Position numbers and translations under genes: made by a program. Below are positions 204 through 9,963 of a stretch of DNA of 11,866 bases, one piece after another; within the stretch, counting starts at the first letter, position 1, and every line of letters starts with the position of its first letter. This DNA is from Candidatus Jordarchaeia archaeon (GTDB lineage: Archaea > Asgardarchaeota > Jordiarchaeia > Jordiarchaeales > Jordiarchaeaceae): the NCBI GenBank assembly GCA_029856435.1, contig JAHQXB010000016.1:1-11866 (forward strand), in the 5' to 3' direction. The notes under the pieces were generated by a model, which saw nothing but the letters and a program-made list of their open reading frames with translations, did not search any database and was not told the origin of the DNA.

Positions 204-1394
204 CTAAATTATTCCTAAGTTGCGTATCCAGGGCTGGAGCTCCTCTCCCAATAAGTTTAGGACGCTGCTTTTTTCCACACTGGGTAGCACGCTGGCTATG
301 TAGAATATCTTATCCTCCCACTCTAATGGCTTGCAAACAACAATTTCGCTTGGTCCCAACTCTAGAGTTAGGGTGCTGATGTTTAAGGAGTAATTTTTGG
401 CCAAGTTTTCTCTGAGGCATATCATTCCCATAGTGGCGACTGTGAAAACTTCCCTGTCATCCGATGTGTAATCTGCTATCAGTAAAGCCCTATTATCAAA
501 TAGCATCAAATGACTGCTTCCCAGTAGTTCCCCGTAGTCCTTTAGTATTTCCTCAATTACTGGCACAGTGCTAATGCTTTTCCTTAGGGCTGACGAAAAG
601 CTCAGGAATAATTTATCGCTTCTAAAAATACTCGTGTCATCTATGTGGTACCGGTTGATGTGGTTCTTCTTCAAAATCTTGGCAACGTCCTTTTTGAGTC
701 GCTCGATTCTCTCCCCCATCTCCTGTGACACAGAACCCTCCGAATCTGATTTGTGCAGAAAAACTGTAGTGTAAGGAGTTTCACCTGCCTTATTGTAAAG
801 GCTAAGGATACTCTCAAAGTAGCCTAGAGCCTCATTATACCTTTCATAATCTTGGAAATCAATTACAAAAATTAACAAATCTGTTTGGCTGAAAATCTCC
901 CCATCCCCCTCAAGATACTTTGTCCTGTATTGTTCCTTTCCTCCCAAATCGTATAGTTCCGCCCGCATCCAACCAAATAAAGTGACTTCCTCTCTAAGTG
1001 GGCCTTCAGTGGATTCTGTCTCGGTGGGAACCTGCTGATTTTTGGCGGTGGGTTCACATTTTGTTAGGGTGTGTATGATTGCGGTTTTTCCCGCATTGTT
1101 CAGACCGGCAAAAACAATTTTTTTACGATCCCTAAAATTTCCTTCACTGACCGCTACAAGAATCTTCGCCGCATATATCCACTTCTCAAGCTGAGACTTT
1201 TTAATTCCCATAAGTTGACTGAGAGACTTGGCATCTTGCTGCGAAAGTTTCTTAACATTAACAATTTTGAGGTCTTTCAAACATTTAACAGTCTCAGAAT
1301 CTATTCCCACAATGATTTGAGGCGAGGATTTAGGAATCCTTTCAACCTCCATACGTTCCTTGACCAGAAAACCTCTTAGTCTCTCAAAACTCAT
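204..1394 (-). CDS. Small GTPase of Rag(Gtr1)/Arf type with N-terminal helix-hairpin-helix-like domain and C-terminal roadblock/longin-like domain
   Basis: G1 GLNNAGKT, G2 PT, G3 DLGG, G4 HKSD, G5-region TSI. HKxD and TSI are Rag/Gtr-like. The C-terminal EEILKDYGELLGSSHLMLFDNRALLIAD resembles the start of the Rag roadblock domain. The N-terminal VGIDSETVKCLKDLKIVNVKKLSQ...MGIKKSQLEKWIYAAK fits a Rad51-N/DUF4332-like HhH pattern. The start is uncertain (1433 TTG; ATG at 1427, 1412, 1394 or 1352); 1394 has GGGGT 10 nt upstream. Confidence 0.88.
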   Translation of the reverse strand: MSFERLRGFLVKERMEVERIPKSSPQIIVGIDSETVKCLKDLKIVNVKKLSQQDAKSLSQLMGIKKSQLEKWIYAAKILVAVSEGNFRDRKKIVFAGLNNAGKTAIIHTLTKCEPTAKNQQVPTETESTEGPLREEVTLFGWMRAELYDLGGKEQYRTKYLEGDGEIFSQTDLLIFVIDFQDYERYNEALGYFESILSLYNKAGETPYTTVFLHKSDSEGSVSQEMGERIERLKKDVAKILKKNHINRYHIDDTSIFRSDKLFLSFSSALRKSISTVPVIEEILKDYGELLGSSHLMLFDNRALLIADYTSDDREVFTVATMGMICLRENLAKNYSLNISTLTLELGPSEIVVCKPLEWEDKIFYIASVLPSVEKSSVLNLLGEELQPWIRNLGII

Positions 1395-1446: not shown

Positions 1447-1460
1447 TTAAATATATTTAA
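1447..1460 (-). promoter_or_regulatory. Probable TATA box of the GTPase gene, within the perfect 14-bp palindrome TTAAATATATTTAA
   Basis: The minus strand reads CTTTAAATATAT about 25-30 nt upstream of the 5'-most possible starts (1427-1433). Confidence 0.45.
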
Positions 1461-1887
1461 AGAAACTCGTGATTATAACTCTTTTTGTCACACTCACCGG
1501 GGCCTTGTCGTAAGTATGTAGTTTGTTGACATGAATTGTGTGCAGGGTTAGCCAGTCTTACCATTTTTTTGGGCTTTAAATTTGGAAGGAAGACCTGTAA
1601 AGCCTCCTTTTTTTTGAGAGGAACAAACGATTGCGCATTAAAGAGAAGCCACACACTTAAAGACGAGTTCCGTCCTTTCCGGTACAATTTTAGTGTTACC
1701 TGCTGCGTGTTGTTTGTTCTTCGGCTTTTGTTGCTCCCCATAGATGCTCTTTTCGGCGTTTTTTGCCCTGCAGGATAACTCAAATAGGCTTCTATCTGAG
1801 GACGCAGAACGCAACCCAAACATACACCCAAAAGGCGCCGCTCAGTTAACTGTACCTCCTCACCGAAACAAAAGTGGTGCTTCCCAG

Positions 1888-2313: not shown

Positions 2314-3594
2314 ATGGAACTCGAAATAGTTAAAGCCGGCGAAACCGAAGGCGCAGCATTCATCAACCCTGAAACTGCAAAAGCCTCAGGAATCTACGAC
2401 GGAAACATAATACTATTCGAAGACCCCACCACAGGAAACTTCGGAGCCGCACCAGTATACACCGACAAAAAAGTAGAAAAAAACAAAATAAAAATAGACT
2501 CAACCCTCGTAGAATCCAGCGGACTTGATGAGGGTTTCACAGTCACAGTCAAAAACTACACCGGAAAACTACAACCATTAAGAAAAATAGTAATAGGAGT
2601 AGAACCCCTGAGCGGACAAGCACCCGAAGAAGTGTTCAAACAGGCCCAAGAAAGAAGAAGCGAACTCAAAAAACTCCTAAACAAAAGAGTAATCTTCAAA
2701 AAAATGAAACTCAGATGGAAAGACCTCGAATCCAACATATCCATAGAGTCCACAGAACCCGAACTAAAAGGACAAGAATTCGCCCTAGTAAACTGGCCCG
2801 AAATAGAAAGAGCAGAAATAGTACCCATAGGACCAGCAATGCCCTTTAACGCCATACTCCTCATCGATGTATCCGGAAGCATGAGCACCAAAGATATGAA
2901 GGTCGTCAACATAGCACCTGCCAGAGAAGGAATAGTCAGCCTCCTAGAATCAGAACAAATCTCAAACTTCCTCAGCAGATTCGAAGAAGGAGAAGAAGTG
3001 AAAAGAAGACACGGAGCAGCATTCGCCGCACTACTATACCTAGCAGAAAAAGTAGGGCGGGGATACGGCGAAAAAGTAGCCATAGCCACCTATCACGACG
3101 AAGCCAAAATCATAAAATTCGACGGAAATGACTACTACGAAGCCGCCACCGGAAAAATAGACCAAGTGGCAGAAACCATACTAACAGAAGTCGCATACAA
3201 AACAGGAGGGTATACTAACATGAGCGATGCTCTGCGAAAGGCTATAAATATCCTCAAGAAGTCGTTTAAGGGCGAGGGCCAGAACATGATCATATTTATG
3301 ACGGATGGTTTTCCGCAGGGTACGGATACTGAGGAAGCTGTGATGTCCATTGTGGAGAAGGAGCTGGCTCAGCTTCCCAACGTGGTTCTCTACACTGTGG
3401 GTGTTGGTGGAGAGGTTAATGATAGACTAATGGAGAATATTGCCACTGCGACTGGCGGCGTGTACTTTAAGGCTACCGATTTGGGTAAGCTTCTTAACTG
3501 GTACAGCGAGCTGGCTAGAACCTTCACAAAGGCGGTTCATCAGAAGGAGAAGAAGCCAGACGAAGAACCCAACACATCTGAAAAAACCGAATAG
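2314..3594 (+). CDS. Cdc48/p97(VAT) N-domain-like region fused to a von Willebrand factor A domain; no ATPase domain
   Basis: The N-terminal AFINPETAKASGIYDGNIILF...IKIDSTLVESSGLDEGFTVTV matches the double-psi barrel of Cdc48-N, followed by a Cdc48_2-like segment (IESTEP). The MIDAS is intact: DVSGS, GYTNMSDAL, MTDG. LYTVGVG and IATATGGVYF are typical vWA segments. GTGAGG lies about 9 nt before ATG 2314; the GTG at 2299 is an alternative start. Confidence 0.85.
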   Translation: MELEIVKAGETEGAAFINPETAKASGIYDGNIILFEDPTTGNFGAAPVYTDKKVEKNKIKIDSTLVESSGLDEGFTVTVKNYTGKLQPLRKIVIGVEPLSGQAPEEVFKQAQERRSELKKLLNKRVIFKKMKLRWKDLESNISIESTEPELKGQEFALVNWPEIERAEIVPIGPAMPFNAILLIDVSGSMSTKDMKVVNIAPAREGIVSLLESEQISNFLSRFEEGEEVKRRHGAAFAALLYLAEKVGRGYGEKVAIATYHDEAKIIKFDGNDYYEAATGKIDQVAETILTEVAYKTGGYTNMSDALRKAINILKKSFKGEGQNMIIFMTDGFPQGTDTEEAVMSIVEKELAQLPNVVLYTVGVGGEVNDRLMENIATATGGVYFKATDLGKLLNWYSELARTFTKAVHQKEKKPDEEPNTSEKTE

Positions 3595-3599
3595 GCAAG

Positions 3600-3617
3600 C
3601 TCCCCCTTTTCTTTTTA
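3600..3617 (+). terminator. Pyrimidine/T-rich archaeal terminator candidate of the vWA gene
   Basis: CTCCCCCTTTTCTTTTTA begins a few bases after TAG 3592-3594. Confidence 0.45.
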
Positions 3618-3639
3618 TGCTTTATCCTGAAGTTTCCTT

Positions 3640-3817
3640 GGTGATGTAGAATTGTTCGGTTTCGCCTTCAAAAGGTTAAGAATTATAAATACTCCCGCCG
3701 AAAAGTTTTCGAGGATGTAGAATTGTTCAGTTTCGCCTCAAAAAGGGGTGTTTATAGGGATTCTTTCACAATTTGGAGCCTTATTAGGGAGATGGAGCCG
3801 AATAAATCTGCATCACC
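3640..3817. mobile_element. MITE family A, copy 1 (178 bp, long variant with duplicated left end)
   Basis: The termini GGTGATGTAGAATTGTTCGGTTTC and (reverse complement) GGTGATGCAGATTTATTCGGCTCC form an imperfect TIR. A perfect 10-bp TSD AAGTTTCCTT lies at 3630-3639 and 3818-3827. Bases 3714-3817 are nearly identical to 9291-9396. Confidence 0.92.
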
Positions 3818-4156: not shown

Positions 4157-4435
4157 TTATTTTGTTAGTGTTATTGTCATTGCGGATACGTTGCTTTGTC
4201 CTCGGTCGTTTTCTATGGTTTCTGTGCCTATTTCGATGCTTTTTACTTTTACGTCTGAGAGGAATCTTTCTCTGGTGATTTCTGCTACGTCTACGGCTCG
4301 GCTGATGGCTCTTCCTCGAGCTTTTATTGAGACTTCTTTTGTTCCCTTATTGAATTGGGTTATTACTGCTAAAACATAGTTCATGGTTGGTTTACTATTT
4401 CCGACAAATACGGTGTTTTCGTCACTTTCTGGCAT
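4157..4435 (-). CDS. albA: DNA/RNA-binding chromatin protein Alba
   Basis: [31 protein letters not shown] and VSAMTITL are hallmark Alba segments. A GGTGA Shine-Dalgarno lies just upstream of ATG 4435. Confidence 0.97.
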
Positions 4436-4534
4436 TTTCTTCACCACACTTTACTTAATTGTGCTTTTTGCTCGTTTTTCAAAAATTGTTTACATTGTTG
4501 TGTCTAGATGTTAACATTAGTTTATTATACTCAC

Positions 4535-5913: not shown

Positions 5914-7446
5914 TTATTTTTTGACTTGGGGGTACATTTGTCTGAATCTCTCAAGTATGGCCCTAGGCGTTACTGTGGCCCGCGTGTATCGGGGTAGCTC
6001 CTTTTCTATTCCCGCCAAGTATTTTGCGATGCTCTTTAAGGCCTCCAGATCGTATCTGGCCATCATAGTTATAGTTTCCATCTGGGGGCTGCCTCCACCA
6101 TGTAGACCCGCTACTTGCATCAGCCCCGCCATTTCTGAGCCCAACGCTGTTTCTATCATGCGGAAGCATCGGTGCACATTTTCCGCGGGCACCTTAGGGT
6201 TCCTCATAATGTATTTGTGCAGCAGTTTTCCCGTCTCTGGATTGTAGAAGTCTCCCTCAAGAGGCAGGGTAACTGATAAGCCTCCCGAAAGGTCGGCGAG
6301 AATCTTATACTCATTATATATTTCTTCACCTGCAAGTCTCCTACCCGCATTAGTCAACACTTCGTCCGGAATGTATGTGCCGCTTGGAGCTCTCTCGGCG
6401 CGGTAGGCGCTAGCTTCACCCGCTGCGAATACCAGTTCTGCTGTACCTATTATGTGAGACAACTTTTCTCTGACATGTTTCTCTTTTTCAATCCCATTGT
6501 ATTCTGCTACAAGCGCCGCCATGCTGGCCAGTATTTCAGAAGCTGCGGCTTTACAACCCGTGTAGGAATGCCTGTGGAAGTGAGCAAAGAGCAACGCTAG
6601 GAATCCTGCAAAGGGCGTAACCCTTGGGTCCTCGTTTCCATTCATGAAGACCCGCTCCTTGGGAACAAAAACGTCGTCAAAAACAGTGAATGATTCAACA
6701 TCGCCCATATTAGCAATGGGAGCGTTCAACTTTTTTCTCTTGTGGGGATACGCGGGTCTGCAAAGAAGCTTCACCCCATCAGTGTCCGCGGGAATAGCGA
6801 AGGCAACAGCATAGTCGCTATCCTTATCAGTCATAAATCTTGTGGGCAGAGCAATAATCTCATCTGCGTAGGGAGCAACCGTATTGCAGACCTTAGCCCC
6901 CCTAACAATTATTCCATCCTTCCTAGTCTCCACCACCCTCAAATAAAGGTCTGGATCCACCTGCTCATGGGGCCTCTTCAACCGGTCACCCTTAGTATCC
7001 GTCTGGGCACAGTTACCAACAATGTCATTCTCCTGGAAATATCTGCAGAACTTTTCCCACCTCTTATAATAATCTGTGCCAAAAGCCTGATCCATCTCGT
7101 AAGTAACCACCGAAAGGGCGTTCATGGCGTCAATACCCATACAGCGCTGAATGCAACCACCCACCCGGTGGCAAAGCACCCTAGTCATCTGCTGCTTCTT
7201 AAGAAGATCCTCCTTACTCTGATGAATATGCGTAAACCTGTTTATCTTCTCACCAGTCAAATGCGAAATGGCAGTACACAGGTCCTCGTACTCTGGGTCA
7301 TTAGCCCGGTCAAAAGTCTCCTTAATAACATTCATCCCGGGGCGAATCCTAGGATCACTCCTATCTACCTTCTCACCATCAATGTAAACGTTGGGCTTCA
7401 TCCTCAACATACGCTCGTAATAGTCCTCAAAAGTCTTAATACCCAT
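5914..7446 (-). CDS. 4-hydroxybutyryl-CoA dehydratase / HpaB-family FAD- and [4Fe-4S]-binding protein
   Basis: CIQRCMG (CxxxC), AQTDTKGDR, HRHSYTGCK (His...Cys cluster ligands plus Tyr), VFDDVFVPKERVF and LHGGGSPQ. GGAGG lies 9 nt upstream of ATG 7446. abfD is not assigned because the active-site residues differ. Confidence 0.9.
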   Translation of the reverse strand: MGIKTFEDYYERMLRMKPNVYIDGEKVDRSDPRIRPGMNVIKETFDRANDPEYEDLCTAISHLTGEKINRFTHIHQSKEDLLKKQQMTRVLCHRVGGCIQRCMGIDAMNALSVVTYEMDQAFGTDYYKRWEKFCRYFQENDIVGNCAQTDTKGDRLKRPHEQVDPDLYLRVVETRKDGIIVRGAKVCNTVAPYADEIIALPTRFMTDKDSDYAVAFAIPADTDGVKLLCRPAYPHKRKKLNAPIANMGDVESFTVFDDVFVPKERVFMNGNEDPRVTPFAGFLALLFAHFHRHSYTGCKAAASEILASMAALVAEYNGIEKEKHVREKLSHIIGTAELVFAAGEASAYRAERAPSGTYIPDEVLTNAGRRLAGEEIYNEYKILADLSGGLSVTLPLEGDFYNPETGKLLHKYIMRNPKVPAENVHRCFRMIETALGSEMAGLMQVAGLHGGGSPQMETITMMARYDLEALKSIAKYLAGIEKELPRYTRATVTPRAILERFRQMYPQVKK

Positions 7447-7511
7447 ACAAGGCATCCTCCAAATCTAAACTAAAATACACACCATATATTGAAAGAAACA
7501 CTGTCAAAACC

Positions 7512-7534
7512 CGATATAAAAATTCCCCCCAAAA
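7512..7534 (-). promoter_or_regulatory. TATA box with upstream G-tract for the dehydratase-like gene
   Basis: The minus strand reads TTTTGGGGGGAATTTTTATATCG, about 65 nt upstream of the start. Confidence 0.45.
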
Positions 7535-7720
7535 ACACAACCCCCAACACAAAACAACCGCAAAAGTTGTTGCACAACATCAAGCCAATTTTTCAACAAA
7601 AAGTGGAAGAAAGATTGCAAACAATTTTCATTAACCTTCATTGTTAGAGTCATCATTTAAGTGTGATTTTAATACAAAACTTTAGAGTACAATTATTACT
7701 TGTTAATGTTAAAGGGGCTG

Positions 7721-7905
7721 ATGGAGATGGATAACAGGGCACAGACTGAGCAGGAAAGAATGCCGCCAGTGACTATGAGGATTGTTGAAACCATTGTACT
7801 AGAGCTTAACCCACAAAAATTATGCTTTTCGACTCTTTTGCGTATGGGAAGCCCAATGAGCAGAGCGCCATCGACCTCCTCACCGTGACGGAAATAAAAG
7901 ACCCC
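7721..7905 (+). pseudogene. Minimal nucleotidyltransferase (MNT, toxin-antitoxin type) pseudogene
   Basis: MRIVETIVLELNPQK, then a frameshift to MLFDSFAYGKPNEQSAIDLLTV. This is a decayed LFGS.A.G....SDIDLL motif with G>D and D>A changes, truncated at about 7905. Confidence 0.7.
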
Positions 7906-7907
7906 TA

Positions 7908-8460
7908 TACCCCACTTGTGGCAAACCCCCAGGAGGGAATGAAAAAACGGCTTAAGGAACGCCACAGTACAGGTGCCAGCCCTGCAGAAGAAACACGGCC
8001 TACCACCCCACATCCGAGACCATAATAGCCCGAACCATAAAGCTGCTAACCGCCCCGGATCCTAATCATCTATTCCCAAGCGTCAGTGGAAGACGTCGCA
8101 GATTCCCTCGGCATAAGCAGAAACATCCCCGGGAAGCCCTGCGGCTCCTCCCAGATACAGCCTACAAGGTAGAGGGAAAACCAAAAATAGTCTCCTACCG
8201 CAAGGAGAAAATAGCAGTAATAAACCTAGATGGGCTCTTCAGAGGAAAAGGAAGCCTCCCTCAAGCCCTCAGCGAAGGGAGGGAAATTATGAGGGAGGGA
8301 TGCAAGAGAACCAGAGAGGGGCTCCCCCAGCTCCTAGACGAAATGCTTGAAGAAATAAGAGAGGCTGACCGATGCCTCTTCATCATAGACGCAAACACCG
8401 CCGTCGCCCGCTAGCTCGTGGAACGCTATAGGGGAAAAACAGTGGTGCTTATGCAGAACC
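7908..8460 (+). pseudogene. Degraded transposase with Zn-ribbon, HTH and DDE-like segments; family unassigned
   Basis: (C)PTCG..KNG..QYRCQPCRR, then SVEDVADSLGISRN (HTH, in a shifted frame), IAVINLDGLF and LFIIDAN. One frame is stop-free from 7956 to TAG 8412-8414 but lacks an early start, so it is absent from the ORF track. Confidence 0.55.
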
Positions 8461-8828
8461 ACTCCCTCAAGCCCAGCCGGGAATAGTGAAATAGGGTTCC
8501 GGTCTTGTCGTTTTAAGGTTCTTCCACATGTTTTGCACCGTACCTTTTGAGTCCTCCTCCATAGCTTCTATGCCCCTTTGGGGCTCTGTTGAATAATTTT
8601 AATTTTTTCAAAAAATTGGTTGTTTTTTGAAAATTTTTCAAATTAACAATGTAAAATTGCAAAAATTCATTAAAATTGTAAGGAAATTGAAAAAATAAAA
8701 CTTTTTCAACAGAGCCCTTTGGGTGTGCTAAGCAGCATCTGGAGCAGTGGGTGTCGTTTCTCCATCGGATCTCCCTGAAAAGTTTAGAGCAAGTATCCTC
8801 GCTTTGAAAGAACATCTAAAACCTTCAT
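8456..8828 (-). pseudogene. IS1595-family transposase N-terminal remnant, interrupted by MITE B
   Basis: After removing the MITE and allowing frameshifts it reads SEDTCSKLFREIRWRNDTHCSRC...KGHRSYGGGLKRY(R)CKTCGRT.NDKTGTLFHYSRLGLREWF, the IS1595 Zn-ribbon N-terminus. Confidence 0.8.
8582..8716. mobile_element. MITE family B (about 135 bp, AT-rich)
   Basis: TIR GGCTCTGTTGAA (12-13 bp perfect, 21/24 extended). The flanking direct repeat CCCTTTGGG (8574-8582 and 8715-8723) gives a 6-bp TSD CTTTGG, or a 4-bp TTTG if the ends are GGG/CCC. An internal perfect 11-bp inverted repeat lies at 8605-8615/8623-8633. Confidence 0.88.
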
Positions 8829-8989
8829 AAGGAAATGTTGGGAAGCCAGCCACAAAAATCTTATTTAAGAGCGAGCACTTCCAAAAATTCTTTTAGTTTT
8901 TAGGTAATAATTCTTTGCTACGAAAAATCTTTAGGTTTTTCATCCTTTATCTAAAAAGCGAAGCTTATGTAGGTTTGCTTGAGTACAGT

Positions 8990-9590
8990 ATAGATTCAAC
9001 GGTGATACCTGCACCACCCCCCTCAAAGAAACCATGGTTGCTATGAGGGTTAAACTCCACCACCAAACCGCGAAGTACAACGTACTCGCCCGACTGGTGA
9101 TCAACACCATCGTGGCAGTTTGCGTCTCGAAAAACACTAAGGACGCAAGACCCCTCCTGCAACGTGTGCCGCCTGGTTCCACCGTCTACATGGACGCCGA
9201 ATACGATGTAGAGTACAACTACCAGTACAGCCAGGAGAGGGGGATTACCATCATAGTTCATCCCAAACTTTTCGGTGAGAAGCTCTAGGTGATGTAGAAT
9301 TGTTCGGTTTCGCCTCAAAAAAGGGGGTGTTTATAGGGCTTCTTTCACGATTTGGAGCCTTACTAGGGAGATGGAACCGAATAAATCTGCATCACCAGAA
9401 GCTCTACAAGGGAAAACACCGTCACCGAGCTCAAAAAGAATTCAGCAGGAAGAAGTATAGACGCCGCAAGCTGGTAGAACGCGTTATGGGGAATAAAGCC
9501 GCCAGAGATGGAAGCACACTGAACTACCGAAGGCCAGACGTGCAGAGGAAGGGGCTGGTGCTCAAGTACGTTGCCCACAACATCCCTTGC
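8990..9590 (+). pseudogene. IS5-family (DDE_Tnp_1) transposase remnant, 5'-truncated, frameshifted and split by MITE A
   Basis: IDST(G)...VKLH...YMDAEYD...YRRRKLVE (Y-x2-R-x3-E)...LVLKYVAHNI. Removing 9288-9406 restores the frame (FGEKL-YKGKH). Confidence 0.85.
9288..9396. mobile_element. MITE family A, copy 2 (109 bp)
   Basis: TIR GGTGATGTAGAATTGTTCGGTTTC versus reverse complement GGTGATGCAGATTTATTCGGTTCC (20/24). A perfect 10-bp TSD AGAAGCTCTA lies at 9278-9287 and 9397-9406. Confidence 0.95.
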
Positions 9591-9666
9591 TGTTTAGACA
9601 GCAAGCCTGGCCGGAATTCCTGCAACCAGTACAAGTGCCCTTTTAAAGGTAGGGTGCAGGACAGCT

Positions 9667-9728
9667 ATGATTAAAGCATTTATGCTAGTGGTTACTCCGT
9701 CTGCCTATTCGGCTCAGTGGCTACCGGG
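9667..9728 (+). pseudogene. Possible second MNT nucleotidyltransferase fragment
   Basis: SIYASGYSVCLFGSVATG, with LFGSVATG at 9705-9728. The expected SDxD does not follow. Confidence 0.35.
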
Positions 9729-9963
9729 GGGCGGCTCCTTAAAGCCTGTACAGCTACGGGGGAGTATGAGGCAGTTATTCACCCTAAAAAAATCTTAATC
9801 AAACAAATACTTCAATTTTTTGGATGTGTTCTTTAAGAGCGAAAAAAATATATTTCTCGATTTGGCGTTCCCTCTTAGTGTTAGGGGAAAGTAAGCAAAA
9901 TCAAACCGAAACACAATGTATGCGTCTCGCCTGAAACACAAAAATTAGAGGTGTCTGAAAATT

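Follow-up and report, generated by a model that had tools for sequence, protein, structure and literature searches.

The window analysed here is the whole of an 11.9-kb contig (JAHQXB010000016.1, our C76; 11,866 nucleotides) from a 3.54-Mb, 98% complete assembly of a Candidatus Jordarchaeia archaeon, an organism represented by metagenome assembly only and whose nearest relatives in the database carry the names Candidatus Jordarchaeaceae, Freyarchaeota or Jordarchaeum. Near one end it carries, on the minus strand, a gene that is real and whose product, according to sequence profiles and a predicted structure, is a small GTPase of the Asgard Rag/Gtr family with three domains: an N-terminal pair of helix-hairpin-helix motifs, (HhH)2, a Rag-type G domain and a roadblock domain. 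The gene and its parts are as follows:

207-1394, minus strand: coding sequence of the HhH-Rag-roadblock GTPase, 396 residues (stop codon at 204-206; alternative in-frame ATG at 1427)
1329-1394, minus strand: residues 1-22, two short helices (4-10 and 17-22) before the HhH core in the model
1146-1328, minus strand: (HhH)2 domain, residues 23-83 (HHH_5 at residues 30-77, profiles, model)
570-1133, minus strand: Rag/Gtr-type GTPase domain, residues 88-275 (Gtr1_RagA, 8yl2 and fold matches)
1083-1106, minus strand: G1 P-loop GLNNAGKT, residues 97-104, Arf/Sar-like in wording
936-950, minus strand: G3, D149-L-G-G152, followed by K153
744-755, minus strand: G4 HKSD, residues 214-217
627-635, minus strand: G5 TSI, residues 254-256, as in RagA and RagC
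207-569, minus strand: roadblock domain, residues 276-396, acidic (isoelectric point, pI, 4.4), placed by secondary-structure order and model alignment

The plus-strand translation of 204-1394 contains many stops; the open reading frame (ORF) lies on the minus strand, where the frame is open from a TTG at 1433. Initiation at the ATG at 1394 gives the 396-residue product opening MSFERL, and this ATG is taken as the start because orthologues too begin at MSFERL. The in-frame ATG at 1427, which yields the 407-residue form in the protein database, is a possible alternative. The ratio of non-synonymous to synonymous substitution (dN/dS) over the whole gene, estimated with three orthologues, is 0.17-0.23 within the genus and 0.09 against a more distant species, and such purifying selection (0.09-0.23) shows that the gene is not a chance ORF. 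A look-up of RNA data gave no holder for the gene. By part, dN/dS is 0.07-0.09 for the HhH domain, about 0.30 for the G domain and 0.10-0.22 for the roadblock domain, so that the HhH domain is the most and the G domain the least constrained part.

Gtr1_RagA (PF04670) is the best Pfam family for the protein (5.4e-24, 85.3 bits against a cut-off of 22, residues 92-312), with Arf (PF00025; 1.2e-14, 54.6 bits) and SRPRB (31.3 bits) scoring lower. A sequence search of the PDB places the Lokiarchaeal protein LokiRagO (8yl2) first (6e-22, residues 85-334), followed by RagC, RagA and Gtr1 at about 1e-7 and SAR1 chains at 1e-8. These two leading matches agree with the original prediction, made from the letters of the DNA, that the protein belongs with the Asgard Rag relatives. 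The features it had named, GLNNAGKT, HKSD, TSI, an HhH N-terminus and a roadblock tail, are likewise all present according to Pfam, profiles and the model, and its three domain calls (HhH, Rag/Arf-like GTPase, roadblock) were borne out by Pfam, profile and fold comparisons.

The motifs of the nucleotide site are intact, including the P-loop Lys and Thr, switch-I Thr129, DxxG (as DLGG), HKSD and TSI. Across 35 relatives, K103 and T/S104 are each found in 34, position 214 is H in 20, S in 8 and N in 7, K215 is kept in 34 and D217 is invariant. TSI is also displayed by the RagA and RagC rows in the available part of the supplement of Tran et al. (Tran et al., 2024; PMC10933270). The catalytic switch-II Gln is missing: directly after DxxG stands Lys153, where 26/35 relatives have Gln, and this residue is Lys in the subclade of the window protein and Leu in the sister subclade. 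A lineage-specific insertion of about nine residues lies ahead of switch I (113-128) and is modelled with low pLDDT (predicted local distance difference test). Within the same clade, a cluster of 13 members named Freyarchaeota (P0012, 393 residues, 52% identical) has no P-loop Lys/Thr (GLDGSGIA), DxxG Asp or G4 Lys and keeps the HhH and roadblock domains; its sequence suggests that it is probably a pseudo-GTPase.

An AlphaFold prediction from 11 close orthologues alone was unusable (pLDDT 51). The AlphaFold2 model used here was built on an alignment of 51 diverse relatives and reached a pLDDT of 88 and a predicted template modelling score (pTM) of 0.88. Foldseek searches with it returned 8yl2 at the top (6e-21), followed by RagA/RagC and Gtr1/Gtr2 over 302-321 columns at TM (template modelling) scores of 0.76-0.84, and model residues 90-390 align to 8yl2, RagC and Gtr1/2. 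Residues 276-396 follow the helix and strand order of a roadblock domain in the model, and they close with a conserved L-x-P-W-I-x-N tail. A profile of this C-terminal domain matches 8yl2 at 0.006 and the C-terminal roadblock domain of RagA at 0.6. In the model, then, the arrangement of GTPase and roadblock is like that of RagA/C, Gtr1/2 and LokiRagO.

The N-terminal domain is identified at the level of profiles. HHH_5 is matched in 16/25 relatives (E <= 0.1), at best with 3e-7. A family profile built from an alignment of 25 N-domain sequences (A5) finds the C-terminal acidic repeats AR1/AR2 of NusA (5e-6) and the C-terminal domain of the RNA polymerase alpha subunit (alpha-CTD; 6e-4), and further the HhH regions of DinB/Dpo4 and pol iota and the Rad51 N-domain (0.09). 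Comparison by hhalign gives 92.7% against P0024, a protein with four HHH_5 repeats (3.5e-28) and a DUF4332, and 93.2% over 82 columns against a Helarchaeota GTPase. With the N-terminal 91 residues as query, phmmer returned only four matches, P0024 included, among 1.8 billion representatives, and the ESM Atlas search with residues 1-86 gave a single DUF4332 cluster at 0.75, which serves as a lead only. In the full-length model, helices 25-28, 33-41, 47-51, 55-62 and 66-83 follow the (HhH)2 order with pLDDT above 90. The (HhH)2 identity is thus solid at the profile level, and the fold itself is predicted from profiles and model. The HhH call of the original prediction stands in its profile-level homology to (HhH)2 domains; as a single-sequence HHH_5 match it falls below the curated cut-off.

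Hairpin 1 reads V-G30-I-D32 and hairpin 2 M-G63-I-K65, such that the second glycine of the G-h-G turn is absent in both. Position 32 is Asp in 22/35 family members, and hairpin 2 is degenerate. The last helix of the domain (66-83) bears a nearly invariant W72 and continues into the linker. Ahead of the core, residues 1-10 have a pLDDT of about 60, and an F/L-x-K motif within residues 1-22 is common to distant relatives. The window N-domain is basic (net +6, pI 9.7), as is its own clade (net +6 to +7, pI 9.7-10.4); over the family the net charge runs from -8 to +7, and the largest family (f9) is mostly acidic. The likeness to NusA AR1/AR2, alpha-CTD, the RadA/Rad51 N-domain and DUF4332/HHH_5 extends over about 50-60 residues and covers both hairpins and the last helix, and the NusA repeats share the Asp at the second hairpin position. 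Unlike known (HhH)2 domains, the one in the window is fused to a small GTPase, is preceded by two extra helices and has incomplete hairpin glycines. Outside the GTPases, the N-domain is most closely related, within Jordarchaeales genomes, to the HhH of a ribosomal protein L13e with a C-terminal HHH_5 (Ribosomal_L13e 2e-14, HHH_5 1.4e-11), found at:

L072:977-1531 (genome G009), minus strand; also G000:C121:8490-9248: L13e-HHH_5 fusion

A full-length profile search of 400 Asgard genomes gave matches in 235, including 135/135 genomes of family f9 and 29/31 of f5, and at nearly all of the roughly 150 places listed an open frame of about 400 residues covers the profile from position 5 to 393. Five more genomes (f21, f24, f26, f27 and f29) carry full-length copies, one of them several. 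The relatives are collinear from end to end at 22-29% identity, with L39, L50 and W72 of the N-domain nearly invariant. Since at least eight Asgard families (f1, f5, f9, f21, f24, f26, f27 and f29) have such full-length relatives, the HhH-Rag-roadblock fusion is a widespread Asgard family and not a rarity. The original prediction had treated the fusion as unusual, a notion that this survey overturns. A maximum-likelihood tree of 51 proteins, built on their GTPase and roadblock part, has an open backbone, and a single origin of the HhH fusion is neither supported nor excluded by it.

Closer to the window, the gene is present in four, probably five, of the six genomes of the genus. The one complete genome among these, G005, retains both flanking genes and lacks exactly the gene between them, a clean presence/absence polymorphism. 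The gap between the alcohol-dehydrogenase-like gene and the gene for the VWA protein described below measures about 240 bp of unrelated DNA in G005 (L074, G005:C1:2442714-2446964), versus about 1.4 kb otherwise, in a comparison with L069 and the window. In five genomes of the sister family the HhH-Rag gene was not found, and only a GTPase-roadblock paralogue is there. The genome of the window itself has a second Rag-like gene with GTPase and roadblock (G000:C180:36950-37489, L002; Gtr1_RagA 3.5e-13), flagged for one in-frame TAG near its start, which neighbours a large iron-sulfur protein and has been kept throughout the order. In one family (locus L049, genome G147), an HhH-Rag-roadblock gene (1486-2664) is followed after 105 bp by a GTPase-roadblock gene without the N-domain (2770-3681). 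These tandem genes are sisters in the tree (100/95), and their products might pair as a Rag-like heterodimer.

Rag GTPases have a central role in eukaryotic nutrient signalling; among prokaryotes, their closest relatives are found in Asgard archaea. The closest solved relative of the window protein is LokiRagO (8yl2; 24% identity), a homotetrameric RagA-like small GTPase of the Asgard Lokiarchaeota. In its crystallised chain the G domain follows after only about 36-40 residues, and the N-domain profile finds no match there, so that no solved structure shows the HhH-GTPase junction. LokiRagM (8zla, 9m28) provides further related Asgard structures; a literature search found no paper on the LokiRagO and LokiRagM entries. 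The eukaryotic Rag/Gtr proteins (RagA/B, RagC/D, Gtr1 and Gtr2; PF04670) are 17-22% identical to the window protein and differ from it in being without an HhH domain, whereas the window protein has an Arf/Sar-like P-loop and Lys where the catalytic Gln would stand. No Ragulator/EGO or TORC1 genes were found in the window. Arf/Sar proteins (PF00025) consist of a single G domain directly preceded by an N-terminal amphipathic helix and have no roadblock, whereas the window protein has an 86-residue HhH region before its G domain and a roadblock after it. The bacterial and archaeal MglA-MglB system is likewise a small GTPase that works with a roadblock fold; there, however, the roadblock partner is separate, and here it is fused. 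The window G domain is Rag/Arf-like and not MglA-like, with DLGG as its G3 and no MglA family listed in Pfam.

In Candidatus Prometheoarchaeum syntrophicum MK-D1, Rag-like GTPases are the second largest GTPase class, close to Arf, and several are tagged 'XGR' in Supplementary Figs 4 and 6 (Tran et al., 2024; PMC10933270). In the available portions of that source, these proteins appear with an extra N-terminal part, a GTPase and a roadblock, the same order as in the window protein, and neither a meaning for X nor a mention of HhH is given in those portions of text and supplement. Other papers on Asgard GTPases define RagGtr, ArfL and ArfR groups without an HhH fusion, and our literature search found no publication naming the X or HhH domain of Asgard Rag-like GTPases. 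As far as these portions go, the architecture is partly catalogued as 'XGR', and no publication identifying the X-domain as HhH was found.

Upstream of the GTPase gene, which is monocistronic, a gene for a VWA protein lies head to head with it. The features concerned are:

1434-2298, no strand: intergenic region between the GTPase and VWA genes, about 865 bp, enlarged by dispersed repeats
2314-3594, plus strand: VWA gene, 426 residues, candidate partner, divergent from the GTPase gene (GTG at 2299 a possible start)
4160-4447, minus strand: Alba chromatin/RNA-binding protein (Pfam Alba 3.4e-23)

The VWA protein has a complete metal ion-dependent adhesion site (MIDAS; D185, S187, S189, T301 and D331), with all five residues invariant. 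Its N-terminus is weakly Cdc48N-like (a weak CDC48_N match), and otherwise Pfam finds VWA families only. The order HpaB-like, DUF5788, Alba, VWA and divergent GTPase is kept in three other species, and the VWA gene is head to head in four species of the genus. In f9, at least 22 loci have a VWA-RING gene in the same head-to-head position, as does one locus in f27. A VWA-RING query found no match in the genome of the window, and the window VWA has relatives of 38-40% identity elsewhere in f9 genomes; by sequence comparison, the Jordarchaeia VWA and the Loki-type VWA-RING genes are not orthologues. With about seven VWA genes in a 3.5-Mb genome, a VWA neighbour would arise by chance in about 1 in 250 cases, a post hoc estimate. 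On the other side of the GTPase gene, no downstream operon partner was found in the loci of relatives, where an alcohol-dehydrogenase-like gene (convergent), an arginase-family gene and a radical-SAM gene lie beyond the 3' end.

The account that we favour, and that as a whole we hold to be moderately probable, is a Rag-type switch with slow or assisted hydrolysis, an HhH docking module and the VWA protein as leading candidate partner. The intact site would bind GTP and let the protein switch between GTP and GDP forms. The protein would pair through its roadblock domain, a step suggested by its relatedness to the Rag/Gtr proteins, which do so, and to 8yl2, a tetramer. Because Lys153 replaces the catalytic Gln, intrinsic hydrolysis is expected to be slow, and a partner may supply catalytic residues or the protein may remain GTP-bound for long. 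Compensation by a partner for the loss of a catalytic residue in cis is a known theme. The (HhH)2 domain would then be the docking module that places the switch on its partner, for which the head-to-head VWA/MIDAS protein is the leading candidate.

Several observations weigh against this account. Taken as a single sequence, the N-domain scores only 18.0-18.4 bits (E 0.003-0.004) with HHH_5 (PF14520), for which the Pfam cut-off is 27. The 51-protein sequence tree leaves open whether the window protein is orthologous to the Loki-type clade paired with VWA-RING genes, and the Lys in place of Gln could mean a different catalytic solution and not slow hydrolysis. The VWA gene is 89% identical in G005, where the GTPase gene is absent, and persists at 71-75% identity in the sister family, where the HhH-Rag gene was not found in five genomes; it is older and unchanged where the GTPase is absent. 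Since the VWA gene occurs without the GTPase, the pairing may be positional chance, and a functional link between the two in this genome is possible rather than probable. A broader proposal, in which pan-Asgard (HhH)2-Rag-roadblock switches would work with VWA/MIDAS partners (a VWA-double-RING protein, a probable ubiquitin ligase, in the Loki type and a Cdc48N-like-VWA protein in Jordarchaeia) through nucleotide-dependent docking of the HhH or another acidic surface on the MIDAS, with two VWA genes installed by non-orthologous displacement, seems to us quite unlikely.

The partner of the HhH domain might instead be DNA or RNA, with the GTP state coupled to nucleic-acid binding, a link raised in the original prediction, for instance in chromatin, ribosome or RNA tethering. 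HHH_5 and (HhH)2 domains commonly bind DNA, the N-domain is basic in this clade and the most constrained part of the protein, the most similar Jordarchaeales HhH modules sit at the C-terminus of the L13e fusion, and an Alba gene is near, which is a weak indication. However, the phosphate-binding G-h-G turn has lost its second glycine in both hairpins, with Asp as the family norm at position 32, the best solved matches are the NusA acidic repeats, which are protein-binding modules, and the charge of the domain is not conserved, the largest family being mostly acidic. Given that range of charge, nucleic-acid binding cannot be the conserved function of the family. We consider this explanation unlikely for the window protein, and the missing glycines, the NusA-like Asp and the variable charge together make a protein the more likely partner on sequence grounds.

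Loss of the catalytic Gln could also mean that the protein does not cycle at all and acts as a nucleotide-locked scaffold or constitutive adaptor. Lys or Leu replaces this Gln across the Jordarchaeia clade, in P0012 the P-loop Lys/Thr and the DxxG Asp are gone as well, and constraint is weakest on the G domain. Yet the window protein keeps every one of the nucleotide-site motifs listed above, true GTPases without this Gln use a residue supplied in trans (as in Rap/RapGAP), and a dN/dS of 0.3 is still purifying, which leaves a pseudo-switch distinctly improbable. A Sar1/Arf-like trafficking GTPase with the VWA protein as a Sec23/24-trunk-like partner, that is, a COPII-like pair, is suggested by the Sar1/Arf-like GLNNAGKT, the SAR1 and Arf matches, the short N-terminal helix in the model and the VWA-like fold of the Sec23/24 trunk. 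Such a pair was rejected as very improbable: the GTPase contains a roadblock domain, absent from Arf/Sar proteins, and by Pfam the VWA neighbour has none of the Sec23/24 domains (zinc-finger, beta-barrel, helical, gelsolin).

For the favoured Rag-type switch, a widely conserved extra domain on a Rag-like family offers a concrete handle on the docking target, and the recurrent VWA neighbour a second one. If the broader VWA/MIDAS proposal should hold, a Rag-type switch would be tied, in prokaryotes, to machinery that modifies or unfolds proteins, a connection for which no counterpart in eukaryotes is described. How hydrolysis works can usefully be asked of the Jordarchaeia copy, in which the catalytic Gln is naturally missing. 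This value is tempered in that the architecture is common and the roles proposed here derive from sequence and modelling. What is specific to the lineage is Lys153, the basic and highly constrained HhH domain, the precise absence in G005 and the non-orthologous head-to-head VWA gene.

In three related species, about 80-200 bp lie between the GTPase and VWA genes, versus about 865 bp here. The longer spacer of the window contains one repeat of about 315 bp (approximately 1885-2210) with at least 35 copies in the genome at 79-85% identity, and another of about 170 bp (approximately 1497-1671) with five copies at 89-95%. No inverted repeats, terminal ones included, were found in 1434-2300, and an Rfam scan of the window gave no match at the gathering score. 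An ORF at 1457-1831 (minus strand, 124 residues) was ruled out as a gene, as it has no family match and sits in the repeat DNA. The Alba protein, encoded 2.7 kb from the GTPase gene, is 100% identical in two related species. The remaining features of the window are:

5914-7455, minus strand: HpaB-family protein, 513 residues (HpaB_N 1.9e-95, HpaB 2.6e-57)
8513-8815: short ORF with a weak IS1595-type zinc ribbon match (2e-4)
9300-9674: short ORF with a weak match to the C-terminus of an IS5-family transposase (8e-5)

The HpaB-family protein scores far under the NCBIfam cut-offs for true 4-hydroxyphenylacetate monooxygenases and may be another member of that flavoenzyme family, for example one like 4-hydroxybutyryl-CoA dehydratase. 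The two short ORFs are probably insertion-sequence remnants within a gene-poor stretch (about 7500-9900).

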